DNA of 64,000 nucleotides from Bacteroidota bacterium (GTDB lineage Bacteria > Bacteroidota > Bacteroidia > Chitinophagales > BACL12), in assembly GCA_016706865.1 (NCBI GenBank), contig JADJIS010000003.1:466030-530029 (forward strand), in the 5' to 3' direction. Of the stretch, positions 1,370 to 61,194 are shown in pieces. Within the stretch, counting starts at the first letter, position 1, and each line of letters starts with the position of its first letter. The translations under genes were made by a program, and so were the position numbers. The notes under the pieces were generated by a model. That model made no database searches, was not told where the DNA came from, and was given only the letters and a program-made list of their open reading frames with translations.

Positions 1370-1781
1370 CAGTTAACAGTCAACAGTGGGCAGTTGGCAG
1401 TTTGACGGGAAGGAGGTTTTCGTAAGCCCATAACTTACAACTCAGAAAATATTGGGTCAATGGTGAGTAGTGAGTGTTGAGTTTGATCCGAGAGGGGATC
1501 GGACTCACCAAATGAGTAATGAGTAATGAGTGATGAGTTTGATCCGCGAACTAACTCAGAACCCAGAACTCCGAACTTAATGGGTGGGTGGTGAATGGTG
1601 AGGGGTGAGGAAACCCATCAAAAACCGAGAACTAACTCAGAACTCAGAACTCAGAACACAGAACACAGAACTCAGAACACAGAACTCAGAACACAGAACA
1701 CAAAACAAAAGACCTCCAAGTTTCATCCTGATCGCAATCCCGGCTGTTCAATTCTCAATTCTCAACTCTCAATTCTCAATT
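1370..1781. repeat. Seven consecutive blocks of different 7-bp tandem repeats
   Basis: Read directly: CAGTNNN x5 (1370-1404), GTGAGT-type x3 (1462-1482), ATGAGTR x4 (1512-1539), AGAACYC-type x4 (1551-1578), GGT-rich x5 (1579-1613), AGAACWC x10-12 (1625-1708), CTCAATT x5 (1747-1781, overlapping the stop at 1776-1778). Confidence 0.9.
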
Positions 1782-2579
1782 CTTTTGGAGCCATGCTGTA
1801 ACCGCTTCCCAATAATACTCATTCGCCGGATCGCTGCTCCAGAGCGCTTTTGAGCCGTGGGTGCCTTTGGTGTCGGGGTAGAATTGTGTTAATACATTTT
1901 CGGGAAGGTGTTTAAATGCTTTTTCAAGAGCACCGGCTTCTTTTTCGGTGGAGGTGATAAAAATTGGTTTGGTATTGTAGTTTTTGAAGTAATCTGCAGC
2001 GGAAGTTCCATCATCAAATTTAGCGATCGGACTGAATCCTATCACAGCCTTCACATGTTCATTATCCATGGCAACCTTTAAACATAAAGATGCCGAATAA
2101 CTGCTTCCCCAAAGGATCACGGGTTGACCCCAGGTTTCATATGCGAGATTTACACCTGCTTCAATATCGGGTAGCGAGGAGGGATAACTTGTAGCCTTAT
2201 TTGCAGCAAGTGCATTGGCATTTGTTTTATTGTCGTGTGCGTCAATTGCTCCGCCACTTCTTTGGTCCAATGCAAGGCAATTGTAACCCATGGCATTCAA
2301 TTTCGGTGCTATTTCTGCATATTCATAATTGTTCATTTTAGCCTGATGGCAAAGAACGATAACAGGTGAGGTGCTGTCGATGGAATACATCACAGCTCTC
2401 ATTGTTAACCCATCGGCGGAGGGAAATTCAATAGTATCCTGACGCATGCCGCTTACAGTAATGGGTTGTTGTTCAGGAATATCCGTTATAGTATCCTGTT
2501 CCGATTTATCTTTTTTCCCTTTACAGGCCATTAATAATGAACCTGTAAGTATTAATACAAGCAGTGAATAACCTTTCAT
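1776..2579 (-). CDS. Alpha/beta hydrolase lipoprotein (dienelactone-hydrolase-like)
   Basis: ORF 1776..2606. I prefer ATG 2579 (MKGYSLLVLILTGSLLMAC lipobox) over the GTG at 2606. GSSYSAS nucleophile-elbow-like motif and alpha/beta hydrolase-like length. Confidence 0.75.
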   Translation of the reverse strand: MKGYSLLVLILTGSLLMACKGKKDKSEQDTITDIPEQQPITVSGMRQDTIEFPSADGLTMRAVMYSIDSTSPVIVLCHQAKMNNYEYAEIAPKLNAMGYNCLALDQRSGGAIDAHDNKTNANALAANKATSYPSSLPDIEAGVNLAYETWGQPVILWGSSYSASLCLKVAMDNEHVKAVIGFSPIAKFDDGTSAADYFKNYNTKPIFITSTEKEAGALEKAFKHLPENVLTQFYPDTKGTHGSKALWSSDPANEYYWEAVTAWLQKN

Positions 2580-5414: not shown

Positions 5415-5460
5415 TTGAAATGTAGAAACAGCCGGAACCCGCCAGTTGGCGGACAGGCGC

Positions 5461-5944
5461 GGATGACGCTGATTGGGCGGAAAAAAAAGGATAAAAAAAG
5501 TTGATATAGAAGTATAAACAATAATAATATTACCCTAGTTAAATTAATTCGACACGTTTAAGTCCTGAAAGGACGACACATCTTGTAACCACGGACTTCA
5601 GTCCGTGCGAATTAAAAAAGGGAACACGGATGACGCTGATTGGGCGAAAAAAAAAGGATAAAAAAAGTTGTTATAGAAGTATAAACAATAATAATATTAC
5701 CCTAGTTAAATTAATTCGACACATTTAAGTCCTGAAAGGACGACACATCTTGTAACCACGGACTTCAGTCCGTGCGAATTAAAAAAGGGAACACGGATGA
5801 CGCTGATTGGGCGAAAAAAAAAGGATAAAAAAAGTTGTTATAGAAGTATAAACAATAATAATATTACCCTAGTTAAATTAATTCGACACGTTTAAGTCCT
5901 GAAAGGACGACACATCTTGTAACCACGGACTTCAGTCCGTGCGA
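5461..5944. repeat. Tandem repeat, 2.9 copies of a 167-bp unit
   Basis: GGATGACGCTGATTGGGCG recurs at 5461, 5628 and 5795 (period 167). Each unit carries the hairpins GTCC-TGAAA-GGAC and CACGGAC-TTCA-GTCCGTG and A-runs. Two more TTTA-loop hairpins follow at about 5987-6007 and 6023-6037. Confidence 0.9.
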
Positions 5945-14966: not shown

Positions 14967-15053
14967 GTTGTTTAATATTTACATGCAAAGAACTCGCTTT
15001 AATGTTACCTAATCTTTATTGTAACATTAGTTAAACATAAATCGAATGTAAAC

Positions 15054-15083
15054 AAAAAAGCCTCCCGAACGAATTCGGGAGGC
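15054..15083 (-). terminator. Intrinsic terminator after the 15109..17481 gene
   Basis: GCCTCCCGAA-CGAA-TTCGGGAGGC (15060-15083), with a T-run on the minus strand (A-run 15054-15059 on +). Confidence 0.8.
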
Positions 15084-15108
15084 TTACAATCATACTGCAA
15101 TTAACATT

Positions 15109-19360: not shown

Positions 19361-19815
19361 CTCAGAACGTAGAACCTGAATGAAGTCGCAGTCACAGTCA
19401 CAGTATTCAGTTTTGACATGAGCAAAATTTTACTCCGAATAAAACAATTTCAAACGGTTGAACGATACGTCGATAATTAATCTTGAACACAGAACTCAGA
19501 ACCCAGAATAGAACTCATCCCTAAACTTTCAGCTCCGAATCCACAGCGTTCGCTACGCGTAACACTGTGGGGACACTTTATGGGGTGGTGAACTTAGAAC
19601 CTAGAACCTGCCAGACGCTGACACAGTCGCAGGCAGGCTCAGAACTAAAACATGTAGTGATCGACGAAGGAGATCTACTACATGTCAGAACCCAGAACAA
19701 TAATATCGAATAAAGAACAAGGAATAAAGAACAACAAACAAACCACACACGAGTGATTTTCCTCCGTCTTGAACCCAGAACGCAGAACCCAGAACCCAGA
19801 ACTCAGAACGAAGAA
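19361..19815. repeat. CAGAAC-type heptamer blocks interleaved with three unique hairpins
   Basis: Blocks at 19361-19380, 19481-19517, 19591-19606 and 19767-19815. A 6-mer run GTCACA lies at 19388-19405. Hairpins: CCACAG...CTGTGG (19541-19570), CCTGCC...GGCAGG (19607-19637), ACATGTAGT...ACTACATGT (19650-19685). Confidence 0.85.
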
Positions 19816-19818
19816 CAA

Positions 19819-21294
19819 TCAATCATCCTCAATCATCGCATCATTAATTATCGTCCCAGGCAAAACCTTTTTCCCTTGCACACCAAGTTTTCTTAATTTC
19901 TCTGCCTGACCAATAAGATTTCCGCTGCCGTCTTTTAATTGTTTCATGGCATCTTCATAACTTTTTTGTGATCTTCCGATATGGTCGCCAATATCTACTA
20001 GATTTTCCACAAAGCCGACAAATTTATCATACATGGCGGCACCTCTTTCTGCAATAGCAACAGCATTTTTATTTTGTTCTTCTTTTTTCCAGATCTCGGA
20101 GATAAGTTTTATTGCTGCAATTAAATTAGTCGGGGAGATGAGTATCACTCTTTTTTTATATGCATAATTCCACAGGTCAGCATCTTTTTGAATTGCTAAT
20201 AAATAGGCAGGTTCAATAGGAACGAACATCATGACAAAATCCAAACCTTTTACAAACTGTGAATAATTCCTTTTATTTAATTCATCCACATGATTGTATA
20301 TTGCAGCGATATGATTTTGCAAAGCTACCTTCTGTTCCATATCTTCTTCTGAAGAATTATATCTTTCATAAGCACTTAAAGAAACTTTACTATCTATTAT
20401 AACCTTTCGTTTATCGGGATATTGTAATATAAAATCCGGTTGCATTTTTTTTCCATCATCGTTCATGATGGTATTGCCTGCTTCGTCTTTAATAAATTCT
20501 TGTCTGAAATACTCCCTGCCTTCTGTTAATCCGCTTTCTTGTAAAATATTTTCTAAGATCATTTCTCCCCAGTCACCTTGTGTTTTTCGCTGACCTTTAA
20601 GTGCTTTGGTAAGATTATTGGCTTCTTCACTTATTTTCTGATTTAATACGACCAGATCTTTTATTTTTTCCTCCAAAGAGAACCGTTGTTTATTTTCTTT
20701 TTCATAGGTTTCTTCCACTTTCCTTTTAAAATCCTTGATATCATTATTAAGTGGCTCTAATATTAATTTGATATTTTTCTGATTTTCTTCAGTAAATCTT
20801 TTGCTTTTATCTTCTAAGATCTCATTCGCCAGGTTTTTAAACTGCGAAGTATATTTTTCACCTATTTCTTCAATCTCTTTTTTTATGGTATTGTTTTTTT
20901 CTTTTAATACTTCATTCTCCGATCTTATTTTGAGAATATAATCTTTTAATTCATTAGTTTGTGAAAGATTATTTTCCTGTATTGTTTTTAATTCCGTGTG
21001 ATCCTTTTCGAGTTTTTCTAAAGATGTTTGTGATGATGCTAATAAAAGATTATTTTTTTCTTTTTCCTCTACAGCGCGTTTTAAATCCAGTTCTGTATTT
21101 GTAACCAGCTGCTGTAAATCGTTGAGTTTTTCCTGCAAAAAAGTAAGTTTACTTTCGGCCTGAGTGAGTTGGTTGCGTTTATCCTCCAGGTCAGTTCTTC
21201 CGACCATGTTTTTTTCTGCAACCAATTTTCTTATAAACCAGGCCAGTATTGCACCTATTGCTAAACCCGCCAATATATAAACCAAGGGATCCAT
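19819..21294 (-). CDS. rmuC: DNA recombination protein RmuC
   Basis: ATG 21294 (MDPLVYILAGLAIGAILAWFIRK, TM anchor), a long coiled coil, then the RmuC core (GDWGEMILENILQESGL...). Confidence 0.88.
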   Translation of the reverse strand: MDPLVYILAGLAIGAILAWFIRKLVAEKNMVGRTDLEDKRNQLTQAESKLTFLQEKLNDLQQLVTNTELDLKRAVEEKEKNNLLLASSQTSLEKLEKDHTELKTIQENNLSQTNELKDYILKIRSENEVLKEKNNTIKKEIEEIGEKYTSQFKNLANEILEDKSKRFTEENQKNIKLILEPLNNDIKDFKRKVEETYEKENKQRFSLEEKIKDLVVLNQKISEEANNLTKALKGQRKTQGDWGEMILENILQESGLTEGREYFRQEFIKDEAGNTIMNDDGKKMQPDFILQYPDKRKVIIDSKVSLSAYERYNSSEEDMEQKVALQNHIAAIYNHVDELNKRNYSQFVKGLDFVMMFVPIEPAYLLAIQKDADLWNYAYKKRVILISPTNLIAAIKLISEIWKKEEQNKNAVAIAERGAAMYDKFVGFVENLVDIGDHIGRSQKSYEDAMKQLKDGSGNLIGQAEKLRKLGVQGKKVLPGTIINDAMIEDD

Positions 21295-24509: not shown

Positions 24510-24697
24510 CAGCAGTTTCCTGATCAAATAAAACATTACATATCCGGGCAATCCCCGAAATCCATATTAATCCGTGATTCCAATGTTGTGGCTTCCCGAA
24601 GACCTCTCCATTGTGCAGCAGTTTCCTAATCAATTAAAACATTACAAATCCGCGCAATCCGCGAAATCCATAATAATCCGCGATTCCAATGTTGTGG
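24510..24697. repeat. Direct repeat, two 82-bp copies at a 106-bp period
   Basis: CAGCAGTTTCCTNATCAA...ATTCCAATGTTGTGG at 24510-24591 and 24616-24697, with internal AATCCGCG-type short repeats. Confidence 0.85.
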
Positions 24698-24717
24698 ATT
24701 CGCGCAATGTTTGCATG

Positions 24718-28408: not shown

Positions 28409-28478
28409 CGCCAAGGAGATTTTAGATAGATGAAACTATTTTTACCTTCTAATAAATATCGTTAAATTCGTTTATCAC

Positions 28479-29210
28479 ATGAAGCTATACATTTTTCTTA
28501 TTCTTTTATTTCATACATTAAGTTCACATTCACAAATATTTAATGGTCCTGCTGATATGTATGGAGGCGATAAAAAACAAATAAAGGATTCATTAAAGGC
28601 AGTAGAAAAAAGCTCAAAATTATATGTGGTACCTGCAATTTATTTAGTGAATTCCAGCGATTTAACCAAACGTATTGAATTAGAATCAAATATTGGATTT
28701 AGTGTTGAATATGCAGAGGCTGTCAGCGATACTTTGTATAATATGAAAAAAACTGAAGTTGGAGGTTTTATTAAGTCGATTGATGATGATTTTTTTGTAA
28801 TGAATGTTACCAGTGTAACTTTTAATTATTTAGATACTGTTGATAACAATTATTATGATTATATCAGAACAGATCAGTATAATACTGTACTACCTGATTA
28901 TAGTCGTATTGATCTTTCAACTCAACCCATAATAACACGACAAAGTGGCTTCCAAATGGGAATGGAGAATTTTGCTGGTGCTGCATTAACAATTTCCTCT
29001 ATTTCGGCCCTTTTAATTTCTCCGTTAATCAGCATTCGTTATAAAGAAGGAGGATTTAATTCCAATCTCTATTTTAAAGCCGCAGGATTCAGTCTTCTAG
29101 GCGCAGCTTTAACAATCCCGCTATTTATTTATTCAAGGGAAAGGCATTATTTAATTCAGCCTAAAGGGACGGTTTCTAGCGGTGATTACTGGTATCTTGA
29201 GGAGCAGTAG
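28479..29210 (+). CDS. Hypothetical protein with signal peptide and C-terminal TM helices
   Basis: 243-aa ORF. The N-terminus MKLYIFLILLFHTLSSHSQ is signal-like. Two hydrophobic helices lie near the C-terminus. No recognised family. Confidence 0.65.
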   Translation: MKLYIFLILLFHTLSSHSQIFNGPADMYGGDKKQIKDSLKAVEKSSKLYVVPAIYLVNSSDLTKRIELESNIGFSVEYAEAVSDTLYNMKKTEVGGFIKSIDDDFFVMNVTSVTFNYLDTVDNNYYDYIRTDQYNTVLPDYSRIDLSTQPIITRQSGFQMGMENFAGAALTISSISALLISPLISIRYKEGGFNSNLYFKAAGFSLLGAALTIPLFIYSRERHYLIQPKGTVSSGDYWYLEEQ

Positions 29211-29312
29211 GTGTTACCTAGTTTATAGTATTTAGACCCAGGCCAAAATATTTTCCGATCAAATGTACTTATTTTACCCCATTTGCGCTAACACATTTCT
29301 TCTATACTTTTA

Positions 29313-29958: not shown

Positions 29959-30726
29959 ATGGAGAATCTAACAATAGAAAAATTAACCCAGGACTATACA
30001 CAATACACCCCCGAACATTTTAAGGTTTGGGAAATACTATTCGATCGCCAAATGGCCTTGTTAAAAGATCGTGCGGCTCAGGTGTTTATGGATGGCATTG
30101 AAACCATTCACTTTACTGCCGACTCCATTCCGAAATTCGACGAATTTAATATCAGATTAGACACACTTACAGGATGGAATGCAGTTGTGGTGCCCGGACT
30201 CATCGGCAACAAAGAGTTTTTCGAATTACTAAAGAACCGAAAATTCCCTGCAAGCACCTGGTTGAGAACCATGGAGCAATTGGATTATCTGGAGGAACCT
30301 GATATGTTTCACGATGTATTTGCCCATCTTCCGCTTTTAACCAATAAGACATATTGTGCATATTTATACGGCTTGAGTAAAATAGCACTCAGTTATATCG
30401 ATAATCCCGTGGGAGTAGAACTTATTTCAAGAATCTACTGGTATACCGTGGAGTTCGGCTTAATTCGCGACAACGGATTGTTGCGCATTTATGGTTCCGG
30501 AATATTATCCTCCCAAGGCGAAAGTATTTATTGTTTAAAATCAGGAATTCCCTCCAAACGATTGGATTACAATCCCGATAAAATTTTAGATACTCCTTAT
30601 ATCAAGGATAAATTTCAGGCAACCTATTTTGTAATAGATTCCTGTCTCGATCTTTTCGAAAGTCTCCCCGACATTGAACAAGGAATTATCAAAAGAATCG
30701 AACATCCTGAACTCTTTATTCCCTGA
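29959..30726 (+). CDS. phhA: Phenylalanine 4-monooxygenase (aromatic amino acid hydroxylase)
   Basis: ATG 29959. Iron-ligand region PDMFHDVFAHLPLL and YWYTVEFGL. Confidence 0.9.
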   Translation: MENLTIEKLTQDYTQYTPEHFKVWEILFDRQMALLKDRAAQVFMDGIETIHFTADSIPKFDEFNIRLDTLTGWNAVVVPGLIGNKEFFELLKNRKFPASTWLRTMEQLDYLEEPDMFHDVFAHLPLLTNKTYCAYLYGLSKIALSYIDNPVGVELISRIYWYTVEFGLIRDNGLLRIYGSGILSSQGESIYCLKSGIPSKRLDYNPDKILDTPYIKDKFQATYFVIDSCLDLFESLPDIEQGIIKRIEHPELFIP

Positions 30727-30750
30727 ACATCCAATTTTTTTGGTGATGCG

Positions 30751-31268
30751 TGGTAAAAAATAATAACCACAAAGCACAATGGAACACACAAGGGACACAA
30801 AGTGTTATTTGTATTTATAGTGTTCTTTGTGGGTTTCCTTGTGTCCATTGTGGTAAAAAAAAATAACCACAAAGCGCACAATGGAACACACAAGGGACAC
30901 AAAGTGTTATTTGTATTCATAGTGTTCTTTGTGGGTTCCCTTGTGTCCTTGTGGTAAAAAAAATAACCACAAAGCGCACAATGGAACACACAATGGACAC
31001 AAAGTGTTATTTGTATTCATAGTGTTCTTTGTGGGTTTCCTTGTGTCCATTGTGGTAAAAAAAAATAACCACAAAGCGCACAATGGAACACACAAGGGAC
31101 ACAAAGTGTTATTTGTATTCATAGGGTTCTTTGTGGGTTCCCTTGTGTCCCTTGTGGTAAAAAAAAATAACCACAAAGAGCACAAGAGAACACACAAGGG
31201 ACACAAAGTGTTATTTGTATTCATAGTGTTCTTTGAGGGTTCCCTTGTGTCCCTTGTGGTAAAAAAAA
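30751..31268. repeat. Tandem array, 5 copies of an approximately 101-bp unit (long imperfect hairpin plus A8-9 run)
   Basis: TGGTAAAAAA recurs at 30751, 30851, 30952, 31053, 31155 and 31257. In each unit ACACAAGGGACACAAAG pairs with CTTTGTGGGTTCCCTTGTGT, and the outer ACCACAA pairs with TTGTGGT. Confidence 0.9.
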
Positions 31269-31530
31269 ATAACTCTATCGCATTTGAGCACACCGGTATC
31301 TTTTATTAAATTTGAGTTAGCACAATAATTTGGCACAAGATTTCGTATTTGTGTGTAATATGAATAAAAACCACGTTGCCGGATGTTTATAATACTGTAC
31401 ATCAGGCAATTACTTAACTAATAAGTTATACGATTATAGCCAATATCTCTACGCTTTTAGCTGTTTATTTGTATTTATAATTTAGGCAAGCTGAATCAAT
31501 ATTGTAAATTTATTTAAATAGATACTAATT

Positions 31531-32223
31531 ATGGTTTTATCATTCATTCTGCAGATACAAGACACAGCTGTGTCAACACTTACCACTCCCGCTGTTGAAC
31601 CAGTGGAAAAATTGAGAATATTTGAACTTCTTGCAAAGGGTGGTCCGGTAATGATACCGATCGCAATTTTGTTGGTGATCACAATTTATGTTTGGATATA
31701 TAAATTTATCACCATAAATGCACAATCAAAAATTGATAACAGATTAATTCCGCAGGTAAGAGATCAACTCGTTTTAGGAAATTTAAAGTCTGCAAAAGGA
31801 TATGTAGCAAATGTAAATACTTCCGTAGCCAGAGTTGTTGACACAGGTTTGGACATGGTTGGTAGTCCGATGAATGAAGTGGAATCCGGTTTGGAAACTG
31901 CTTCCAATATCGAAATTCTGGAAATGGAAAAACATATGGGTGTGTTGAGAATTGTTGCAGGTATAGCTCCCATGCTCGGATTTATAGGAACCATTGCCGG
32001 TGTTATCACTATCTTTTATGATATATCCACAACAAATGATATCAGTATCTCTGTAATCTCCGCAGGTTTATATCAGAAAATGATCACCAGCGGTTTCGGA
32101 TTGCTTACAGGTATTATCGCATATGGTGCATTTAATTTACTTACGATGAAAATTGAACGTTTTGCATTGAGATTGCAACGTGCAGCTTTCGATTTTATAC
32201 GTATCATTAATACTAAAGAATAA
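31531..32223 (+). CDS. exbB: MotA/TolQ/ExbB proton-channel family protein
   Basis: 230 aa with three TM helices and the conserved GIAPMLGFIGTIAGVI segment. It is followed by exbD with an overlapping start/stop. Confidence 0.9.
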   Translation: MVLSFILQIQDTAVSTLTTPAVEPVEKLRIFELLAKGGPVMIPIAILLVITIYVWIYKFITINAQSKIDNRLIPQVRDQLVLGNLKSAKGYVANVNTSVARVVDTGLDMVGSPMNEVESGLETASNIEILEMEKHMGVLRIVAGIAPMLGFIGTIAGVITIFYDISTTNDISISVISAGLYQKMITSGFGLLTGIIAYGAFNLLTMKIERFALRLQRAAFDFIRIINTKE

Positions 32224-32624
32224 TGAAAATAGGAAGAAAAAAACATTACGATCTCGAAGTGTTTTCATCAACGATGAACGATATCATGTTCTTCCTGATG
32301 TTATTCTTTTTGATCATTTCCACTTTGGCAAATCCCAATGTGATAAAAGTATTACTGCCGCAAAGCGGAACTACAGATACCTATAGCAAACAAGATGTAA
32401 CCCTCACCGTTAATGCTGCAAAAGAATATTTTATTGACGATCGCCAAGTGAGTTTCGACATGCTCGAAATGGAACTCAACAACGCAACAGCTAACTCTGC
32501 AGAAAAAGTAGTTGTACTTCGCGCAGATGCAACATTAACTATTCAGGATCTTGTGGATGTGCTTCAAATTGGAGCTAAGAATCATGTGAGGATTGTTATG
32601 GCTACGGATAAGAGTAATTTCTGA
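32223..32624 (+). CDS. exbD: Biopolymer transport protein ExbD/TolR
   Basis: 133 aa with an N-terminal TM (IMFFLMLFFLIISTL) and VVLRADATLTIQDLVDVL typical of ExbD. Confidence 0.88.
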   Translation: MKIGRKKHYDLEVFSSTMNDIMFFLMLFFLIISTLANPNVIKVLLPQSGTTDTYSKQDVTLTVNAAKEYFIDDRQVSFDMLEMELNNATANSAEKVVVLRADATLTIQDLVDVLQIGAKNHVRIVMATDKSNF

Positions 32625-32957
32625 GGGGAAATAGGAAGTAGGAAATAGGAAGTAGGACATAGGATTGACATAGGACATGGGAAATCGGACATAGGATTTG
32701 ATTTGATTTTAATTGAGAATTAATTTCTAATTGGAGATTTTTTTCAGGCCGTAAATTATGCCTCGGAGGAGTGAGGCTCTCGCTCTTCGCGAGGGTCTCA
32801 CTAAAGGTATAGAAAGCAGAAAGGACATGGGAAATCGGACATAGGATTTAATTTGATTTTAATTCAGAATTAATTTCTATTTGGAGATTTTTTTCAGGCC
32901 GTAAATTATTCATCGGAGGAGTGAGGCTCTCGCTCTTCGCGAGGGTCTCACTAAAGG
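32625..32957 (+). repeat. TAGGAAG/TAGGACA heptamer block followed by two 135-bp direct repeats, each with a 13-bp-stem hairpin
   Basis: The heptamers at 32625-32701 begin 1 nt after the exbD stop. Copies at 32673-32807 and 32823-32957 have a 150-bp period. Hairpins GTGAGGCTCTCGC-TCTTC-GCGAGGGTCTCAC lie at 32771-32801 and 32921-32951. Confidence 0.9.
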
Positions 32958-32997
32958 CATAACAATACAACATAGGGATAGAAAAAGACATGTCATA

Positions 32998-33215
32998 TCA
33001 AAATTTCGCCAGAAATTTAAACTCCTATTTTGGTATCAGGAATCAAGTATCAGGAAAACAAACTCAGTGATTTGAAAAAAAATCGAAGAAATTTCAACTC
33101 CTTTCTCATTTCTCATATTTTGGTATCAGGAATCAAGTATCAGGAAACACATAATAGTGTTTAGCAAAATTTCGCCAGAAATTTAATCTCCTTTCTCCTC
33201 TCTCCTCACTCCTTT
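32998..33215 (+). repeat. Three copies of the composite AAATTTCG-NN-AGAAATTT hairpin element
   Basis: Hairpins at 33001-33018, 33075-33094 (degenerate) and 33167-33184. GTATCAG heptamers lie at 33033-33060 and 33123-33150. CT-rich tails read AAACTCCT.../AATCTCCTTTCTCCTCTCTCC. Confidence 0.85.
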
Positions 33216-33292
33216 TTAAATTTGATCTAAATTACCGAAATTTGGTGAAAATTGACCAAACCCTCTTAACTATAACCTAAACCACACTACTC

Positions 33293-34210
33293 ATGAAATT
33301 TTCACTAAAATTTATTTGCATTATTTTTTTATTTTCTATTAATTTATTAGTGTATGGGCAAATAAAAGTTCATTATTATTCAAAATCAGTGTTTGCAGAA
33401 AACATTGAGACGTTAAAGAAAACTACTTTGGTTTTTGTGGTCACAGATAACTATAAAGATTCTTTAGATGTAATTGAAAAGGCCTTAGAAAAATCTTGGA
33501 CACTAACAAAGTACGAAGTGATCACATACGATGAGTTAAAATATTATGTGAATGAAGATGGATATTCTTACATGAAAATGCAAGGATTTCTTGCTACTCC
33601 CAAAATTTTATCAACTGTGTATTTTGAATTACAATTAAAAGTAGAAAACTCAGATAAGACTAAAATAACGTGGAAACCGATTGCTTACATGAACCTATAT
33701 ATTGATAGGACAAATAATACGGAAGGAATTGAAAAGGGAGAAGAATATCTTTATGAAATACAATATCATAATTATAATGCCGGTTTTTTAAAATTATTTG
33801 TGAAGACGATAAATGACTATATTCTTGCAGGAAAACCTATAGGCGAATTTGATACTGATATATCTATCCCTTCTGAGGTCGAAAAATTAAAAATGGATAC
33901 CTTATATATTCCGGACTACACATTGAAATTGTCTAAAAAATACGTAAGCGAAAGTAAATTTAAGGTCAGAAGTCACGAAGAATTTCTTGAGGATTATCCT
34001 TATGAGGCCACAATATTGAGCGCAGATGAGTTAGGTAATAAAATTTTAAATGGCTCTATTGACTATGCACTTATTTATACGAGTGATAGTGAATTAATTT
34101 CTTTTATGGTTTACAACGTTAAAACCGGTGAATTAATTTATGGAAAATTTTTAGAGTTTAAGGAAAATCTTAAATCGAAAGATCTTTTAGATATTTTTGA
34201 GGAAAATTAG
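33293..34210 (+). CDS. Hypothetical secreted protein
   Basis: 305-aa ORF with a signal peptide (MKFSLKFICIIFLFSINLLVYGQ). No recognised family. Confidence 0.7.
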   Translation: MKFSLKFICIIFLFSINLLVYGQIKVHYYSKSVFAENIETLKKTTLVFVVTDNYKDSLDVIEKALEKSWTLTKYEVITYDELKYYVNEDGYSYMKMQGFLATPKILSTVYFELQLKVENSDKTKITWKPIAYMNLYIDRTNNTEGIEKGEEYLYEIQYHNYNAGFLKLFVKTINDYILAGKPIGEFDTDISIPSEVEKLKMDTLYIPDYTLKLSKKYVSESKFKVRSHEEFLEDYPYEATILSADELGNKILNGSIDYALIYTSDSELISFMVYNVKTGELIYGKFLEFKENLKSKDLLDIFEEN

Positions 34211-34345
34211 AAGTAGGACATAGGACCTAGGACATAGGACCTAGGACCTAGAACATGACAAGGACATGACAAGGACATGACAAGGACATGACAAGGACAG
34301 AAAAGAGTGGGGTAAATTTCGCAAGAAATTTAAACTTCTTTTCCA
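34208..34345 (+). repeat. AGGACMT heptamers, 4 x 11-mer CATGACAAGGA, then AAATTTC-GCAA-GAAATTT hairpin element
   Basis: The heptamers at 34208-34256 start with the TAG stop itself. The 11-mer x4 lies at 34254-34297. The hairpin lies at 34314-34331 with tail AAACTTCTTTTCC. Confidence 0.88.
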
Positions 34346-34398
34346 ATATTCCTGCCTCTGAGTAGTAAGACATACACTTTAAATTATTCTACTTAAGC

Positions 34399-36543
34399 TT
34401 ATTGCTTCACAAATTTTTGCGACCATGAATTCATTCCATCTTCTATTTTAATTATATAAATACCACTTCCAACATTTTGCAAATCGATAATGAAACTGTT
34501 TTCAGATGTAATTATTGTTTGCAGAATTTGACCTATCGCATCGGTTAAATAAATTGATTTTTCGGTAGAGAAATCTGTTTCGATCGCGATGTAATTAAAT
34601 GCAGGATTTGGGTATATTGAAAAAGTATTTTCTACTGTATTGTTAGCTTCTCTGCATGGCACACTCACAGTAATTGTATTTGAATTTTTGAAACAACCGG
34701 TAGCTATTTTTGTTACACGGCATTTATAATTTCCGGTGGTAGTGGCTATATAGTTTGTTGATGTTGCACCGGATATTACTGATGCACCTTTGTACCATTG
34801 ATAGCTGCTTGCTCCTACAGGAACCTCGGTTAAGGTTACACTTCCTCCTGCACAAAAGGTAGTTGCACCCGTTGCGGTTATAGATGCACCGGGGTTTTTA
34901 TTTACAATTACTGGAATTAAAGTTGAAGTTGCTGTGCCACATATACTTGTTGTTTCACATGTATAATCCCCTTTTTTAGTAACTGTATACGAGGTACCGG
35001 TTGCACCTGCAATATTTACTCCGTTCTTTTTCCACTGGAGAGATGTGCCAGAATGTATTGCAGTTAAAACAACAGAACCTCCCTGACAAAACGTTGTAGC
35101 TCCGCCGGCAGAAATGGAAATGGTTAACACAACTCCATCATCAATTATTCCATTGCAATCATCATCCAAAGAATTACATGTTTCCGGAAAAGGTGTGCAA
35201 GCAGGTCCAACCAGTTTTACAACCCAATAATCACTACCACCTAAGTTTGCTTCGGTTTTATCACCGGAAATTCCGGATTGTGAGTATCCCCCGAGAATAT
35301 ATCCGCTATCAGTGGTTTGTTGGAGGGTAATCAGATAATCATAATGACTCCCTCCAATGGTATTCTGCCATTCGATGGCACCAATGCTGTTTATTTTCAC
35401 TACCCAATAATCATTAGCACCCAACAATGTTTCAGTTTTATCACCGGAAATACCAGAAAAGGAGTATCCCCCCATAATATATCCACCATCGGTGGTTTGT
35501 TCGATGGATATCAGAAAATCATTATTGTTCCCACCAATGGTATTTTGCCATTCGATTGCTCCGCTGCCGTTGAGTTTCACTACCCAATAATCATAATCAC
35601 CCAAGGAAGCTTCGGTTTTATCCCCGGAAATACCAGACCCAGAGTATCCCCCCAGAATATAACCGCCGTCGGTGGTTTGTTGAATGGAAAACAGCAAATC
35701 ATCACTGCTCCCCCCAATAGTATTCTGCCATTCGATTGTACCGCTGCTGTTGAGTTTGACTACCCAATAATCGGAAATACCACCCAAAAATGCTTCGGTT
35801 TTATCACCAGAAATTCCGGAATTAGAGTATCCACCAAGTATATATCCGCCATCGGTGGTTTCTTGTATAGGAAAAAGGAAATCATCACCGCTTCCCCCAA
35901 TTGTATTCTGCCATTCGATTGCGCCGATACTGTTTAATTTCACTACCCAATAATCATCAACACCCAACGATGCTTCGGTTTTATCCCCTGAATTACCGGA
36001 AGTGGAATATCCCCCCAGTATATATCCGCCATCTGTGGTTTGTCGGATTGAACGCAATTGATCATCATGACTACCTCCAATGGTATTCTGCCATTCGATC
36101 GTGCCGCTGCTATTTAGTTTCACTACCCAATAATCACCCAAACCCACTGAACCTTCGGTTTTATCGACCGAAATACCAGAATAGGAATATCCCCCTATTA
36201 TATATCCGCCATCGGTGGTTTGTTGGATGGTAGCCAGATAATCTCCAGCTCCTCCGCCTATAGTATTCTGCCACTCAATAGTGCCGCTACTGTTAAGTTT
36301 CACTACCCAATAATCATAACTACCTGATAAGAGTTCGGTTTTGTCACCGGAAATACCGGAGCTGGAGAATCCACCTAGTATATATCCGCCATCGGTGGTT
36401 TGTTGTAAAGACCGCAGATAATCAAAATTACTCCCTCCAATAGTATTCTGCCATTCGATTGCAGGTGCCTGTGCAAATAAGTAATTAGTAATAACTAAGA
36501 AGAAGGAAAAAATCAGCGGCGATATTAATTTCAGTTTATTCAT
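34399..36543 (-). CDS. Secreted repeat (propeller-like) protein with Cys-rich MopE-like motif, Ig-like domains and T9SS sorting domain
   Basis: 714 aa. Eight to nine repeats of about 47 aa (IEWQNTIGGS..D.L.SIQQTTDGGYILGGYS.SGISGDKTE...DYWVVKLNS.G). CNSLDDDCNGIIDDG. C-terminal IYPNPAFNYIAIE...GIYIIKI. Confidence 0.88.
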   Translation of the reverse strand: MNKLKLISPLIFSFFLVITNYLFAQAPAIEWQNTIGGSNFDYLRSLQQTTDGGYILGGFSSSGISGDKTELLSGSYDYWVVKLNSSGTIEWQNTIGGGAGDYLATIQQTTDGGYIIGGYSYSGISVDKTEGSVGLGDYWVVKLNSSGTIEWQNTIGGSHDDQLRSIRQTTDGGYILGGYSTSGNSGDKTEASLGVDDYWVVKLNSIGAIEWQNTIGGSGDDFLFPIQETTDGGYILGGYSNSGISGDKTEAFLGGISDYWVVKLNSSGTIEWQNTIGGSSDDLLFSIQQTTDGGYILGGYSGSGISGDKTEASLGDYDYWVVKLNGSGAIEWQNTIGGNNNDFLISIEQTTDGGYIMGGYSFSGISGDKTETLLGANDYWVVKINSIGAIEWQNTIGGSHYDYLITLQQTTDSGYILGGYSQSGISGDKTEANLGGSDYWVVKLVGPACTPFPETCNSLDDDCNGIIDDGVVLTISISAGGATTFCQGGSVVLTAIHSGTSLQWKKNGVNIAGATGTSYTVTKKGDYTCETTSICGTATSTLIPVIVNKNPGASITATGATTFCAGGSVTLTEVPVGASSYQWYKGASVISGATSTNYIATTTGNYKCRVTKIATGCFKNSNTITVSVPCREANNTVENTFSIYPNPAFNYIAIETDFSTEKSIYLTDAIGQILQTIITSENSFIIDLQNVGSGIYIIKIEDGMNSWSQKFVKQ

Positions 36544-36791
36544 GTGTTTTATTTTTTAGGTGGGAATATTTATTATTTAATAAATTTTTGACATATTCGT
36601 TATCATTAATGTTTATTTAAATATAAAACATGCAGATGCGAAATTGAATTTTATAATGCACTTCGGTTTAAAGACTGGATTTTAGACAAATATCGTTGTT
36701 TTTAAATTCCTGTGTAACTTTTTGATCATTCGTAGGTTAGCATAATATACTATTGAACATTCTTCACCCAATTTTCCCCTAACTTTACACC

Positions 36792-38060: not shown

Positions 38061-38358
38061 GACACGGGATATGGGACACGGGATATAGGACACGGGACAC
38101 GGGACACGGGACTGGACATAGGACATTGGAAATGTGACATAGGAATCCAAAATTGTATCGGGTATAATGTATCAGGAAAGCAATTGGTGGGATTTGCAAA
38201 AATTTCGCAAGAAATTTAAACTCCTTTCTTGTGAGTATCAAGTATCAGGTATCATGTATCAGGAAAACAAACGGTGGGATCAAATCAAATTTCGAAGAAA
38301 TTTAAACTCCTTTCTCCTTTCTCCTCTTTCCTTTCTCCTCTCTGCTCTCTCCTCTCTC
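38061..38358 (+). repeat. GACACGG/CATAGGA heptamers, two composite AAATTTCG..AGAAATTT hairpin elements, CCTYTCT heptamers
   Basis: The heptamers at 38061-38144 (12 units) start on the first nt after the rarA stop. Hairpins lie at 38200-38217 (GCAA loop) and 38287-38303. GTATC-type heptamers lie at 38233-38267. The CT block at 38307-38358 abuts the stop of the minus-strand gene. Confidence 0.9.
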
Positions 38359-39901
38359 ATTTTTGTTTTTTATTTATTATTTGTATATCATTATCTTCCA
38401 CAATATATTCCGGAAGTTTTTGACTGTCGAAGCTTTCAAATGCTCCAAGTTTGTAACCCATGTTTTTAAGTGAGTCGATAGTATTTTCTGGAGGAAACCA
38501 GGCATAAACATTTTTAGAGGAATAAAACATTGCATCTATTTCACACATCGATTTGCAATTAAAAATAATATCAACATCCGGGGCGATATTGTCGATCTCT
38601 CTATAAATTGCAGTGTTCCATAACTTCAAGTCCTTTTCGTTTTCAGTATACATGCTTTTGCCTTTAACATGGGAGAATTTGATGTCTCTAAATGAAATGA
38701 TATATGCAGAAATTCCAAATAAGGTGACAAATAAAAATGCATACTTAATATAATTTTGTTTAAAAAAATCTGAGATATAATCAATCACTACAATGAGTCC
38801 CTTGCTGAAGATCAAAATTATTAGTGGAGCAATATAGTATACATAGGAATATGATTTGGACTTCGCAATGCTAAAAACAACATATACGATTATTATGCAA
38901 GTAATAAATGAAATCCATAATGTTTTATTTTGCCCCTTTCTGAAAATGAATATTAACCCTAGAATAAGTAATAGTATGGAAAATTGTCCATACTGCTGTA
39001 AATATAAATTTAAATAATGATACCATTCTCCGGAATGTCCTTCCAAAACTTCCGTGAAATGTCTTTTATTAAATTCGTATTCATAAGCACTTTCTAATGG
39101 CCATTTTTTCCAAACGTAAATCTGCCACGGCATAAATGTCAGGAAACTAAGCAATAATGCACCTGTAATTTTAAGATATTCTATATTTTTATGTATAATT
39201 AATCTATCGAGAAGCGAATGAATTCCCCAAACACCAAATATGAACAATCCCGGAAGCCATTTATTTAATATCGCAATTCCGGAAAATACGCCAATTCCCA
39301 CAACATAAATAATACTCCCTTGTTTCAAATATTTTAAATAACACCAAATACTTAAAGTGGTATAGAACATAAATGATATATCATTATGATCCATGCCAAT
39401 TACTCCGGCCGTTTGTTCTAACTGGTAAAATGAAAAACAAAACATCAGAGCGGCAGCAAATCCCACCTTTTTATTAAATAAATAGGTCCCCATGCTTAAA
39501 ATAAGAATAGTAGCGAGCGCTCCCATGATTACACTAGGCAACCTTACGGCAAATTCAGTTGGACCTAGTAATTTAATACTCGCAGCAATTTGCCATAAAA
39601 AGAAAGGTTGTTTGTGTACCCAAATGTGATTTCCTGTCCACGAAGTATAATCATATGGTAAGACCGGTTCAGTTCTTAACATGGGTTTAAATGGATGTTC
39701 AGCCATGTTTTTACCAACAAGAGCATGATATCTTTCGTCATAATTATGTAAATAATTATCCTGCTCCGCAATAAACACTCTAATAAGAAAGGCACTTGTA
39801 AAAAGAAATAAATACATACCTGCTTTTATGTTTTTCAACATAAAAATAAATGCGATCATGCCTGATAAAAATGATAAATATATTAAATAGTCCTTTTCCA
39901 T
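38357..39901 (-). CDS. Glycosyltransferase family 39 / ArnT-like polytopic membrane protein
   Basis: 514 aa with more than 10 TM helices. The N-terminal loop DERYHALVGKNMAEHPFKPML is typical of PMT/ArnT-type glycosyltransferases. Confidence 0.75.
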   Translation of the reverse strand: MEKDYLIYLSFLSGMIAFIFMLKNIKAGMYLFLFTSAFLIRVFIAEQDNYLHNYDERYHALVGKNMAEHPFKPMLRTEPVLPYDYTSWTGNHIWVHKQPFFLWQIAASIKLLGPTEFAVRLPSVIMGALATILILSMGTYLFNKKVGFAAALMFCFSFYQLEQTAGVIGMDHNDISFMFYTTLSIWCYLKYLKQGSIIYVVGIGVFSGIAILNKWLPGLFIFGVWGIHSLLDRLIIHKNIEYLKITGALLLSFLTFMPWQIYVWKKWPLESAYEYEFNKRHFTEVLEGHSGEWYHYLNLYLQQYGQFSILLLILGLIFIFRKGQNKTLWISFITCIIIVYVVFSIAKSKSYSYVYYIAPLIILIFSKGLIVVIDYISDFFKQNYIKYAFLFVTLFGISAYIISFRDIKFSHVKGKSMYTENEKDLKLWNTAIYREIDNIAPDVDIIFNCKSMCEIDAMFYSSKNVYAWFPPENTIDSLKNMGYKLGAFESFDSQKLPEYIVEDNDIQIINKKQK

Positions 39902-42398: not shown

Positions 42399-42408
42399 GG
42401 GGGAAAGG

Positions 42409-42494
42409 GGAAATAGGAAGTAGGAAGTAGGAAATAGGACTTACTTATCTTAGGTCCTACGTCTTCCTACTTCCTACTTCCTACTTCCTATTTC
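42409..42494. repeat. Long inverted repeat built from TAGGAAG heptamers (about 31-bp arms)
   Basis: Left arm GAAATAGGAAGTAGGAAGTAGGAAATAGGAC (42409-42440), right arm GTCCTACGTCTTCCTACTTCCTACTTCCTACTTCCTATTTC (42454-42494). It starts 11 nt after the GH16 stop. Confidence 0.9.
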
Positions 42495-42531
42495 ACATTT
42501 TTCCTTACCTTTAACCTAAATTCATAATCAA

Positions 42532-45773: not shown

Positions 45774-46000
45774 AGATATGATATAGGAAATAGGACATAG
45801 GACATATGACATAGGACACAGAACATAGGAAAACAAAGGGTGGAGTTTGCAATAATACTTACTCCTTGAAGCTCTCGCTCGCATCGAGGTTTTCACTAAT
45901 GAAAATGTCCATCACCAGTAAGGCTCTCGCCATTAGGGGGTCTCACTAATGATAATCTCCATCACCAGTGAGGCTCTCGCTCCCGCCGAGGTCTCTGCTT
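45774..46000 (+). repeat. ACATAGG heptamer block followed by three tandem AGGCTCTCGC...GAGGTCTCAC hairpins (period about 50 bp)
   Basis: Heptamers at 45774-45836. Hairpins at 45867-45897, 45918-45947 and 45968-45996, the same family as 32771-32801. Further hairpins are TTCGC-TAAGAGA-GCGAA (about 46024-46040) and CTTTAGTTTA-CAAGTA-TAAACTAAAG (about 46067-46092). Confidence 0.85.
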
Positions 46001-46115: not shown

Positions 46116-46378
46116 ATAATTCGAAGCAATTTGCTTCAATATTACAAACTGCGACTGCGACGGGCCCCCTGCCCCAAAGGGGAGTTAAGTTTTTCAAAAA
46201 TTAAAAATATAATTTCGAAGCGAAAATCTCCAATGTTACAAACTGCCCACTGCCCACTGTTGACTGTTTACTGCCCCAAAGGGGAGTTAAGTTTTTCAAA
46301 AATTAAAAATATAATTTCGAAGCGAAAATCTCCAATGTTACACACTGCCCACTGCCCACTGCTCACTACCCCTACTAC
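46116..46378 (+). repeat. About 2.7 tandem copies (93-102 bp) of the element ATAATTYCGAAGC...CAATRTTACAAA + CTGCCCA heptamers + CCCC-AAA-GGGG hairpin
   Basis: Unit starts at 46116, 46209 and 46311. CTGCCCA blocks at 46243-46277 and 46345-46372. CCCCAAAGGGG at about 46172-46182 and 46274-46284. Confidence 0.88.
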
Positions 46379-46452: not shown

Positions 46453-48072
46453 ATGAAAAAAATATTACTCATCGCGATCTGTATTAGTACAGGATTGCAC
46501 GCCCAATACACACTGGAGCTGATTAAGGACCTTAATCCAGGGGAACCGAACAGTGACCCCGGCTGGTTCGTGGAGATAAATGATGTAGTTTATTTCCCTG
46601 CTAACGACGGCACAAATGGAATTGAGCTATGGCGGACCGATGCTACTGAGGCCGGAACTTCGATGGTTAAAAACATTGGCACCGGCGCCAGTTCCATGTG
46701 CGAATCGGTGTATGGTTGCGGAAGCGAACATATAGTGATGAACGATATTTTGTATTTCAGGGCGACAGATAATGTGCATGGAGCGGAGATCTGGAGAAGT
46801 GATGGAACGGATGCCGGAACTTATATGGTAAAGGATATAAACCCGGGACTAGGTGATAACTCCAATTCGATATTTATGTCGGCGCAATATTTTGCCGAAA
46901 TGAACGATGTTTTATATTTCGCTGCCGATGGTGGTGGAAATAATATTGAACTATGGAGAAGCGATGGAACAGAGGCAGGAACATATCTTGTGAAAGATCT
47001 TGCATTGGGTGGTAGTAGCGTTCCGGAATTTATAACTGCAATAGAAAATAATATTTATTTCAGGTGCAAAAACGACGATGGTGAATCTGAATTATGGAAA
47101 AGCGACGGCACCGAAGCAGGAACAATTTTATTAAAACAAATGTGGGTTACTGCCACAGAATATCAGAATATGTTTATCGCATACGATGGTTTTATTTATT
47201 TTAGGGGAGGAGTTGGAGATCCTTATGATCAGGAATTATGGCGCACAGATGGAACTCCTGCGGGAACAGAATTATTCATGAATATAAATGAAGACGATGG
47301 AGATGGGTCAGATCCAAAACAATTTTTTATATTAAATGATAAATTGTTTTTTGTGGCAGATAATGGTGATGATGATTTTATTTTCACCAGTGATGGAACA
47401 GTTGCAGGCACACAAAAATTATTGGACGAAAATGGTGATGATGTTTTACCCGGAAATTACGCATTTCTTCCCTCAGAAAATAAAATATATTTTTCTGCAA
47501 CTAATGCTGATTTTGATGATGGTTTATGGGTGACTGATGGTACGAATGCAGGCACTAAATTTTTATCGGAATATGGTTCCGGTGCATTTGATGCATCAAC
47601 CGCAACTGTGGTAAACGGCAATAATATTGTTTACAGTGGTTATGATGATGACAATGGTTGCACTACTGTTTTTCAAAGCAATGGCACTGTAGCCGGCACT
47701 TTTCAGTTATTGGAATGCGATGAGTTGAGTTATCCATATTCGATGATCACCTACAACGGAATGGCAATCTTAAATGGCAATGCAGATGCAGTAGGAGCGG
47801 AGCTATGGAAATTGGAAACGGAATTTGAAGTGGGTTTGGAGGAGAATAATAAACTGTCGAATATTAATATCTTCCCAAATCCAGCCGCAGATATTTTGCA
47901 TATAAATAGTCGGAATGCGGAATTTGCAATATCTGAAATACAAATTTTTACGATTGACGGAAAATGTTTATTGCAAACAAAAGGAACTTCCCAATTAAAT
48001 ATTTCTGCATTTCCTGCCGGACTTTACTTCATCAGGATTTTAGATGCTTTTTATCAATTTGAAAAAATGTAG
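46453..48072 (+). CDS. ELWxxDGT-repeat protein with T9SS sorting domain
   Basis: 539 aa. Repeated ELWR(T/S)DGTEAGT motifs (at least 6 copies). C-terminal IFPNPAADILHIN...GLYFIRI. Confidence 0.88.
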   Translation: MKKILLIAICISTGLHAQYTLELIKDLNPGEPNSDPGWFVEINDVVYFPANDGTNGIELWRTDATEAGTSMVKNIGTGASSMCESVYGCGSEHIVMNDILYFRATDNVHGAEIWRSDGTDAGTYMVKDINPGLGDNSNSIFMSAQYFAEMNDVLYFAADGGGNNIELWRSDGTEAGTYLVKDLALGGSSVPEFITAIENNIYFRCKNDDGESELWKSDGTEAGTILLKQMWVTATEYQNMFIAYDGFIYFRGGVGDPYDQELWRTDGTPAGTELFMNINEDDGDGSDPKQFFILNDKLFFVADNGDDDFIFTSDGTVAGTQKLLDENGDDVLPGNYAFLPSENKIYFSATNADFDDGLWVTDGTNAGTKFLSEYGSGAFDASTATVVNGNNIVYSGYDDDNGCTTVFQSNGTVAGTFQLLECDELSYPYSMITYNGMAILNGNADAVGAELWKLETEFEVGLEENNKLSNINIFPNPAADILHINSRNAEFAISEIQIFTIDGKCLLQTKGTSQLNISAFPAGLYFIRILDAFYQFEKM

Positions 48073-48126
48073 ATTTCGGCAACAGCACCGATCAATAAAT
48101 TAAAACCCTTATAAACAGGCTGTTAT

Positions 48127-48185
48127 AAGTCATAAAAAGTTATGTAACCGTTTGGTTTCATAACTTTTTTATGACTTTTTGTTTT
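48127..48185 (+). terminator. Intrinsic terminator after the ELWxxDGT gene
   Basis: 18-bp stem AAGTCATAAAAAGTTATG / CATAACTTTTT(T)ATGACTT, followed by TTTGTTTT. Confidence 0.75.
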
Positions 48186-48282
48186 ATTAAAACTTTCAGA
48201 TACAAATTGAAAATTTTCTCTTTTATATCCTTTGCAATTCTCTGTTTTTTTGTCCTATTATTTTAACCTAAAAATTAATATT

Positions 48283-60805: not shown

Positions 60806-60864
60806 ATGGTGAGTGGGGAGTGGTGAGTAGTGAGTAGGGTGGTGAGTAGAAAGTAGTGAGTGGG
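60806..60864 (+). repeat. GGTGAGT-type heptamer block starting 2 nt after the groEL stop
   Basis: ATGGTGA GTGGGGA GTGGTGA GTAGTGA GTAGGGT GGTGAGT AGAAAGT AGTGAGT. Confidence 0.85.
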
Positions 60865-60914
60865 ATCGAAACCCGAAAAGCATCGCTTCGAATTTATACT
60901 TTAATGAAATTAAA

Positions 60915-60947
60915 ACCTTTCTGGAGTTTTTCAGGAAGGTTTTTTTA
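60915..60947 (+). terminator. Intrinsic terminator of groESL
   Basis: ACCTTTCTG-GAGTTTTT-CAGGAAGGT followed by a T7 run (60941-60947). Confidence 0.8.
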
Positions 60948-60985
60948 TGAATGAGTAATGAGTTATGAGTAATGAGTTTGATCCT
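60947..60985 (+). repeat. ATGAGTR heptamers ending in GAGTTTGATCC
   Basis: ATGAATG AGTAATG AGTTATG AGTAATG AGTTTGATCC. The same module occurs at 1462-1489 and 1512-1545. Confidence 0.85.
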
Positions 60986-61191: not shown

Positions 61192-61194
61192 CAT

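Follow-up and report, generated by a model that had tools for sequence, protein, structure and literature searches.

A strain-variable tandem array of palindromic 101-bp units between phhA and exbB in an activated-sludge Chitinophagales genome

Organization of the phhA-exbB spacer

The analysed stretch of DNA, 64 kb in length and called the window here, contains phhA followed on the same strand by the exbB-exbD operon, and the spacer between them carries a tandem array (Table 1). Tandem Repeats Finder resolved the array with a period of 102, 5.2 copies, 95% matches and a score of 936. The unit starts were located at 30750, 30850, 30951, 31052, 31154 and 31256, and a repeat search gave start-to-start spacings of 100, 102, 102 and 102. 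When a 26-mer derived from the unit was searched with up to three mismatches, it occurred five times in the window, always inside the array, against an expectation of zero. The first-pass annotation had described five tandem 101-bp units between phhA and exbB, and both the repetition and the position were confirmed: the period is 100-102 bp, and the array begins 24 bp past the phhA stop (30726) and ends 258 bp before the exbB start (31531).

Internally, the array is an alternation of arm, 22-nt loop, inverted arm and A9 linker. Terminal inverted repeats ACCACAA...TTGTGGT close every unit, and the linkers between the hairpins have the form GGTA(8-9)TAACC, the first of them being GGTAAAAAATAATAACC. 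The arms are composed of 9-12 nt CACAA(A/G/T)G-type sub-repeats in inverted orientation, for which Tandem Repeats Finder reported periods of 9 and 12 (TCCCTTGTG in 2 copies and CACAATGGACA in 2.2 copies). The arm variants read earlier by eye (AAGGG and AATGG; CCCTTG, CCATTG and CCTTG) were all present in the unit alignment.

Table 1. Positions of the array, its parts and the other features referred to in the window.
Feature	Position	Strand	Remarks
phhA (phenylalanine 4-monooxygenase)	29959..30726	+	Upstream gene; Pfam Biopterin_H, E = 5.8e-38
Whole array	30750..31273	none	Five 100-102 bp units and an 18-bp partial sixth unit (GTGGTAAAAAAAAATAAC)
Unit 1 hairpin	30766..30854		Plus-strand RNA MFE -37.9 kcal/mol, z -4.4; 2-nt left-arm deletion, loop variant TTTATAG, right arm CCATTG
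Unit 2 hairpin	30866..30955		Plus-strand RNA MFE -42.1 kcal/mol, z -6.2
Unit 3 hairpin	30966..31056		Plus-strand RNA MFE -36.2 kcal/mol, z -4.6; AATGG left and CCATT right form a perfect 14-nt inverted repeat
Unit 4 hairpin	31068..31158		Plus-strand RNA MFE -39.4 kcal/mol, z -4.6
Unit 5 hairpin, edge variant	31170..31260		Plus-strand RNA MFE -37.3 kcal/mol, z -5.8; GAGCACAAGAG left, TTTGAGGG right
A8-9 linkers	30755-30765, 30855-30865, 30956-30965, 31057-31067, 31159-31169		T-runs on the minus strand
Terminal A9-TAAC linker	31261..31273	none	Representative of the A8-9 linkers
Candidate Bacteroidetes-type promoter, TTG-N20-TAAATTTG	31284..31314	+	Immediately right of the array; predicted
exbB-exbD operon	31531..32624	+	Downstream operon; Pfam MotA_ExbB and ExbD
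exbB	31531-32223	+	MotA_ExbB
exbD	32223-32624	+	ExbD
Other intergenic arrays, 90-167 bp (five)	5460-5944, 24510-24701, 32672-32961, 33022-33204, 46169-46361
Example of a heptamer-built hairpin	42399-42498		Inverted heptamer arrays; -53 kcal/mol
Canonical terminator	14975-15100	-	GC-rich hairpin and T-run
Canonical terminator	48070-48190	+	GC-rich hairpin and T-run
63-aa ORF	31211-31402	-	Called gene in several assemblies
Nearest rightward minus-strand ORF	34399-36543	-	Lies past three plus-strand genes

Copy number among same-species assemblies

The population sample consisted of assemblies that carry the exact ExbD or the 255-aa PhhA of the window. They came from wastewater or activated sludge and were labelled Chitinophagales or Bacteroidota MAGs, and the identical 255-aa PhhA was found in such MAGs. 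An independent assembly (L024) whose phhA DNA showed no differences from the window over 768 positions also contained five units. A 1.43-Mb contig (L013), with 27 of 768 phhA positions different and an identical protein, contained four units, of which the first was symmetrically shortened and the last was without its right arm. In L017 (25 of 768 different, protein again identical), two full units were present, corresponding to the internal and the last unit types of the window. Seven assemblies of the L012 type (29-34 of 768 different) contained a unit with a short left arm and one full unit.

The flanks of the variable array were 94-99% identical among the same-species assemblies, and the edge variant of unit 5 was the last unit in L017 and L024 as well. 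Some of the low copy numbers came from short-read assemblies, which may collapse repeats. A doubtful one-unit allele in L019 (30 of 768 phhA positions different) is a possible case of such a collapse: in this short-read MAG the neighbouring 150-bp array is likewise present only once, and the flanks do not differ from those of L012. Its one-unit allele was therefore set aside as evidence. The window, L013 and L017 alleles differ in unit composition as well as in number, beyond what assembly collapse would produce, and the locus is therefore a true VNTR. A comparison of copy number in related strains had been proposed with the initial description, and it returned 2, 4 or 5 units across assemblies. 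Both properties that define a VNTR or minisatellite were observed, namely a head-to-tail unit in the range of 10-100+ bp and a copy number that varies among strains.

Folding of the units and pairing register

Each unit forms a long imperfect hairpin of about 30 pairs, in line with the more than 25 paired positions counted before folding. Folded singly as plus-strand RNA, the units reached -36.2 to -42.1 kcal/mol (z -4.4 to -6.2), and none of 200 shuffles was as good. As minus-strand RNA they reached -31.8 to -36.3 kcal/mol (z -4.2 to -4.9), so that the plus strand folded better by about 5 kcal/mol per unit. With DNA parameters the minus strand was slightly favoured, and the strand asymmetry is thus inconsistent. 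The fold of the whole array gave -205.5 kcal/mol for the plus and -190.6 kcal/mol for the minus strand, with z near -9.4 for both and a very degenerate ensemble.

Two registers were found within the unit. The one chosen by RNAalifold has 29 pairs and needs G-U pairs, and it is therefore specific to the plus strand; the other has 24 pairs, all of them Watson-Crick. In addition, the right arm of one unit can pair with the left arm of the next across the A-run about as well as the arms pair within a unit, and the inter-unit stretch 31122-31221 reached about -39 kcal/mol on either strand. In minus-strand folds the T-run was often sequestered in the loop of such an inter-unit hairpin. The caution of the first-pass annotation that the register could not be fixed was therefore justified.

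Covariation was assessed on ten distinct full-length units, following the earlier proposal of an alignment with RNAalifold, and no supported covariation emerged in either register. In the plus-strand register chosen by RNAalifold, no pair was changed on both sides among the ten units. In the Watson-Crick register one compensatory pair appeared (G-C in five units, U-A in two, unpaired in three); it was non-significant, 128 of 500 column shuffles doing as well. Most of the variable columns were unpaired in the plus-strand register, an observation that is partly circular since the register was chosen by an algorithm favouring that outcome. This register contains conserved G-U pairs, and C-to-U changes keep its pairs. 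Hairpin potential was kept in all ten full-length variants and in the symmetrically shortened first unit of L013, a retention for which selection on structure and recent common descent would be equally good explanations.

Relatives and the repeat-rich genome

In the sister species (L003-L008 and L010; PhhA 86-88% identical), the gene order phhA-exbB-exbD is kept and the spacer measures 206-215 bp. Neither the unit in these spacers nor heptamer repeats in these loci were found. Other relatives (L002 and L011) have different genes after phhA. A divergent lineage (L028), whose phhA DNA is 9% different, has one decayed unit at the corresponding place. In that unit the left arm has stayed almost whole, and a hand count on the alignment puts the change in the right arm and loop at about 33-41%. 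The decayed unit retained a weak fold on the plus strand (-22.9 kcal/mol, z -2.0), and its minus-strand fold was at the level expected of shuffled sequence (-17.1 kcal/mol, z -0.5). Upstream of it lies a different hairpin, built of ATTCGTG-type heptamers. From this single decayed unit it follows that the element is older than the array, that its amplification is recent and that the hairpin has not been strongly maintained.

The array is not an isolated case in its genome. Tandem Repeats Finder detected about 45 arrays of period 7, 14 or 21 in the window, besides the five other intergenic arrays of Table 1. Hairpins built from inverted heptamer arrays also occur, and a 150-bp array just past exbD likewise differs in copy number between assemblies. 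The density of heptamers was 16 bp per kb in the window, 9 in a same-species contig (L001) and 0 in the sister-species loci.

Coding potential and promoters

No protein is encoded by the array, which also lacks its own promoter. As its period corresponds to 34 codons, ORFs of 121-128 aa cross it, and gene callers annotated such ORFs in L024 and L012. Pfam gave no family above threshold for these 121-128 aa ORFs, and the inter-unit differences are all non-synonymous in the plus-strand frame. A protein search with the 128-aa ORF returned no homologue, a weak negative since the equivalent ORF of L024 was also missed. The 63-aa minus-strand ORF runs from the spacer into the last unit and was rejected for want of support.

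The Bacteroidetes -7 box TAnnTTTG was absent from every unit on either strand and from the minus strand of 30700-31560. Immediately right of the array, a candidate promoter of this type was located on the plus strand. The pattern TTG-N19-21-TAnnTTTG has two matches only in the 64 kb, both intergenic and upstream of same-strand genes. Across the window and five other assemblies of the species, six sequences that differ by 3-6% in their coding DNA, the first 65 bp past the array showed no variation. The candidate boxes are not conserved in L028. On the evidence of these motifs, we infer that TTG-N20-TAAATTTG may be the exbB promoter.

Possible roles in transcription

A functional RNA element in the phhA 3' UTR was considered, in which the five stem-loops would protect the mRNA from 3' exonucleases or attenuate read-through into exbBD. 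The position agrees with such an element: the array lies 24 bp after the phhA stop with no terminator between, and directly before the candidate exbB promoter. The stronger plus-strand folds (-36 to -42 versus -32 to -36 kcal/mol), the conserved G-U pairs with pair-keeping C-to-U changes and the weak fold of the L028 unit on the plus strand only point the same way. Together, the plus-strand fold advantage and the plus-only, G-U-supported pairing in L028 hint that RNA from the phhA strand may have a role. However, no U-tract follows the plus-strand hairpins, though the host genome uses canonical U-tract terminators. Covariation was absent, the sister species do without any such element, the copy number varies freely from 2 to 5, and the DNA-parameter folds, which slightly favour the minus strand, make the asymmetry inconsistent. 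We consider this possible but unlikely.

The first-pass annotation had read the units as terminator-like modules on the minus strand, pointing toward phhA. As anatomy this holds, each unit being a hairpin followed on that strand by a T-run. The functional reading, in which five intrinsic terminators insulate phhA against antisense transcription from the exbB side, is a good deal more doubtful. On the minus strand, no more than 2 nt separate each hairpin from the U8-9 that follows, and in L019 and the L012-type assemblies the unit with the short left arm forms a clean 12-bp stem and then UUAUUUAUUUUU on that strand. The canonical GC-rich hairpin and T-run terminators of the host genome lie on the correct gene strand and are strand-specific, which shows that orientation matters. 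However, neither a gene nor a TAnnTTTG box lies upstream of the array on the minus strand. The earlier statement that no minus-strand gene lies there was correct: between the array and the nearest such ORF at 34399, no minus-strand ORF of at least 80 aa was found except repeat ORFs spanning the array and ORFs inside exbB. A consensus terminator scan did not call the units, whose loops and stems are atypically long; its loop limit was 8 nt, and the apical loops of the units exceed it. The frequent sequestration of the T-run in inter-unit loops, the chance-level minus-strand fold in L028 (z -0.5) and the lack of covariation also stand against terminator function.

Mobile-element, small-RNA and other readings

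The terminal inverted repeats of each unit and an alternating-arm layout that resembles BIME clusters of REP elements would fit a cluster of a dispersed, MITE- or REP-like mobile palindrome with many other genomic loci, and a MITE had been named at the outset as the alternative. This is very improbable. No second copy was found in the 64-kb window, either with the 26-mer at three mismatches or by blastn at word size 7. The flanks GGTGATGC and TCTATCGC share no target-site duplication, and the apparent end repeat of the array is the partial sixth unit. Phage and plasmid collections gave no blastn match. Exact-pattern scans of viral, GTDB-representative and JGI metagenome collections returned zero, the JGI collection being without the host species and the GTDB set apparently likewise. 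The second scan pattern is present in the JGI contigs L014 and L015 although the JGI scan gave zero, and it follows that the scanned JGI collection did not include the host species.

Tandem small-RNA genes of the NsiR1 (Nostoc) kind, with a promoter and a terminator per unit, would account for the hairpin and T-run modules on the minus strand, but we give this reading next to no credence, because no unit has a TAnnTTTG box on either strand, a sigma-70-type scan showed no enrichment (9 sites versus 10.2 expected), no Rfam family reached threshold and the sequence is not conserved beyond one species. Nothing in Rfam reached the gathering score, and at a relaxed E-value only noise from eukaryotic miRNA and snoRNA hairpins appeared, far below the cut-offs.

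Several further candidates were rejected. A CRISPR array does not fit, since the repetition (95% identity) extends over the full 100-102 bp period and leaves no unique spacers. DnaA boxes at an oriC were discarded because TAACCACAA and TTGTGGTAA match TTATCCACA at only 7 of 9 positions by eye. Retron, attC and coding-repeat readings were dismissed since their defining features are absent.

Interpretation

The array is tandem and lineage-specific and varies between strains, and it gave no sign of coding, of a promoter or of covariation. The explanation that we favour, and hold to be rather probable, is an intergenic minisatellite (VNTR) that is specific to the species, is built of palindromic repeat units and was generated locally, with at most an incidental effect on transcription.

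Under this explanation, the origin would be a hairpin-forming element beside the phhA stop, with arms made of inverted 9-12 nt CACAA(A/G/T)G-type sub-repeats. Tandem duplication in steps of 100-102 bp, by replication slippage or unequal recombination, would then have built the array, and units may later have been gained, lost or truncated in different strains. The series would thus lead from a short repeat, through a hairpin made of inverted short repeats, to tandem duplication of that hairpin. More broadly, the array may be one product of a lineage-wide filling of spacers with heptamer repeats, inverted-heptamer hairpins and higher-order arrays.

Any effect on transcription is probably incidental. 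Read-through from phhA would place up to five stable plus-strand stem-loops between phhA and the exbBD control region, and these could hinder further read-through or the progress of 3' exonucleases, in the way of REP/BIME clusters. Any stray transcription in the antisense direction would be halted by the same units on the minus strand. If the array has any role, BIME-like plus-strand stem-loops lying where the phhA transcript ends, before the exbBD control region, would be slightly better supported than minus-strand terminators. A bolder version is a speculation to which we assign little probability: an active lineage-specific mechanism that would make palindromes from heptamer-type repeats, amplify them into higher-order arrays at gene boundaries and so yield modular, copy-number-tunable transcriptional insulators or mRNA 3'-end elements around operons, here on both sides of exbBD, with the 101-bp array before it and the 150-bp hairpin array after it.

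Taken alone, the array is a new but ordinary intergenic palindromic minisatellite. It can be used to tell strains apart in a Chitinophagales species that is abundant in activated sludge and uncultured. It also serves as a warning, as gene callers annotate spurious ORFs of 63-128 aa inside it and short-read assemblies may break or collapse at the locus. The spacers of the host genome contain heptamer repeats, repeat-built hairpins and 90-170 bp arrays, and its sister species lack them. The host species is therefore a good natural system for studying the origin of such repeats and whether they influence transcription boundaries.

Comparison with known systems

Like Rho-independent terminators, including tandem ones, the array on its minus strand presents a stem and then U8-9 within 2 nt. 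Unlike them, it has hairpins of about 90 nt that contain several internal loops and end in an apical loop of 11-22 nt; the minus strand offers nothing to terminate, and for phhA the units point the wrong way. The NsiR1-type arrays of Nostoc/Anabaena are tandem sRNA genes in which each unit has its own promoter. The array shares with them intergenic tandem repeats whose units each end in a terminator-like hairpin; however, no promoter box was found in its units.

Mycobacterial interspersed repetitive units (MIRUs) are a dispersed family with about 40 loci. As in MIRU-type VNTRs, where tandem repeats of 50-100 bp lie between same-strand genes, copy number here varies among strains. MIRUs differ in being dispersed over those loci and in carrying short ORFs that couple the translation of the flanking genes, and they are not long hairpins.

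The BIME-2 clusters (REP/PU) of E. coli and its relatives are also intergenic tandem imperfect palindromes with a period on the order of 100 bp. In both, inverted arms alternate with two kinds of linker, which in the array are the AT-rich loop of roughly 22 nt and the A9 linker. Strain-variable copy number, a position at the 3' end of a gene and a proposed role as RNA stem-loops or insulators are further points in common. REP elements occur as hundreds of dispersed copies and are linked to RAYT transposases, whereas the array unit occupies one locus in the DNA examined and has no sequence similarity to them; its arms, unlike those of REPs, are made of short tandem sub-repeats.

For the genome as a whole, the nearest likeness is with heptamer repeats. 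A passage of MacGregor (2015, PMC4679880), citing Mrazek (2007), describes species-specific floods of intergenic heptamer repeats in Beggiatoaceae, in cyanobacteria (STRR) and in a few Bacteroidetes. As in those organisms, the repeats reported here flood the spacers of one species and are absent from close relatives (PMC4679880). The arrays reported there are simple heptamers, whereas the unit between phhA and exbB is a higher-order 101-bp palindrome composed of inverted short repeats.

Spurious Open Reading Frames and Tandem Arrays around exbB-exbD

The 101-bp array between phhA and exbB-exbD has a repeat period of 34 codons and is therefore open in several frames. Spurious "proteins" of 63-128 aa, composed of repeat units, were found among the public gene calls at this array (see table).

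A second tandem array was located directly 3' of exbD (32672-32961), with a 150-bp unit in 1.9 copies that holds a GC-rich hairpin (GTGAGGCTCTCGC...GCGAGGGTCTCAC). This array was present in 1 to 3 copies in other assemblies, one of which has an N gap within it. It is followed by a 90-bp unit in 2 copies (33022-33204). Thus, exbBD has hairpin arrays on both sides. Long-period arrays in other intergenic regions are also listed in the table.

Repeat features and gene calls in the window and in other assemblies of its species
Feature	Source	Position	Strand	Unit and copies
Repeat-unit ORF	window	30907-31293	-	
Repeat-unit ORF	window	30929-31309	+	
Repeat-unit ORF	window	31211-31402	-	
Repeat-unit ORF	L024	3052-3438		
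Repeat-unit ORF	L012	8995-9186		
Intergenic tandem array	window	5460-5944		167 bp x 2.9, A-runs and small GC hairpins
Intergenic tandem array	window	24510-24701		106 bp x 1.8
Intergenic tandem array	window	46169-46361		102 bp x 1.9
Motif AAATTTCG(N2-3)AGAAATTTAAACTCC	window	33001, 33167, 34314, 38200, 38287		
Motif AAATTTCG(N2-3)AGAAATTTAAACTCC	L012	10911, 16568		
Heptamer repeats in spacers (examples)	window	1384-1783, 19384-19837, 32627-32696, 34214-34299, 38061-38362, 42402-42494, 45776-45832, 60807-61193		

Strain Differences around the Locus

The last ~100 bp ahead of exbB (31430-31530) were identical between the window and L028, an assembly of a divergent lineage. In this segment the window was unlike L013 and L017, although both are otherwise closer strains than L028. 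This pattern of identity suggests that the spacer before exbB is a recombination mosaic.

Downstream, the region 32961-36764 is a strain-specific replacement, and both of its borders lie within repeat-rich spacers. In the window, a 305-aa ORF is accompanied here by a repeat protein of 714 aa with six to seven internal repeats of 180 bp, the C-terminal stretch of which resembles a T9SS sorting signal, as judged by eye rather than by a domain search. In its place, the conspecific assemblies L012, L013, and L017 contain two ORFs, of 84 aa and 298 aa, together with a receptor-like Plug/CarboxypepD_reg protein of 786 aa. The window and L013 share an 805-bp indel (28414-29219) that L012, L015, and L019 lack. 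It includes a 243-aa ORF to which no Pfam family was assigned.

Hairpin, Recurrent Motif, and Heptamer Repeats in Spacers

A near-perfect hairpin of ~100 nt (42399-42498; -53 kcal/mol on either strand) consists of GGAAGTA/GGAAATA heptamers paired with their reverse complements. The hairpin is followed by TTTCACATTTTTCC and flanked by two plus-strand genes. In addition, several spacers contain a recurrent motif of ~25 nt, AAATTTCG(N2-3)AGAAATTTAAACTCC, which occurs not only at gene starts but also where the ends of convergent genes face each other. The motif includes a small inverted repeat that is AT-rich, and CT-rich heptamers come after it.

Heptamer tandem repeats were observed in almost every spacer of the whole window. 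The types included GGAAATA/GGAAGTA/GGACATA, GACACGG, CAGAACT/CAGAACC, TGAGTAG, ACTGCCC, and CTCCTCT. Their density was 16 bp per kb in the window, compared to 0 in sister species whose PhhA is 84-93% identical. These repeats are similar to the heptamer floods known from Beggiatoaceae, cyanobacteria, and a few Bacteroidetes (PMC4679880).
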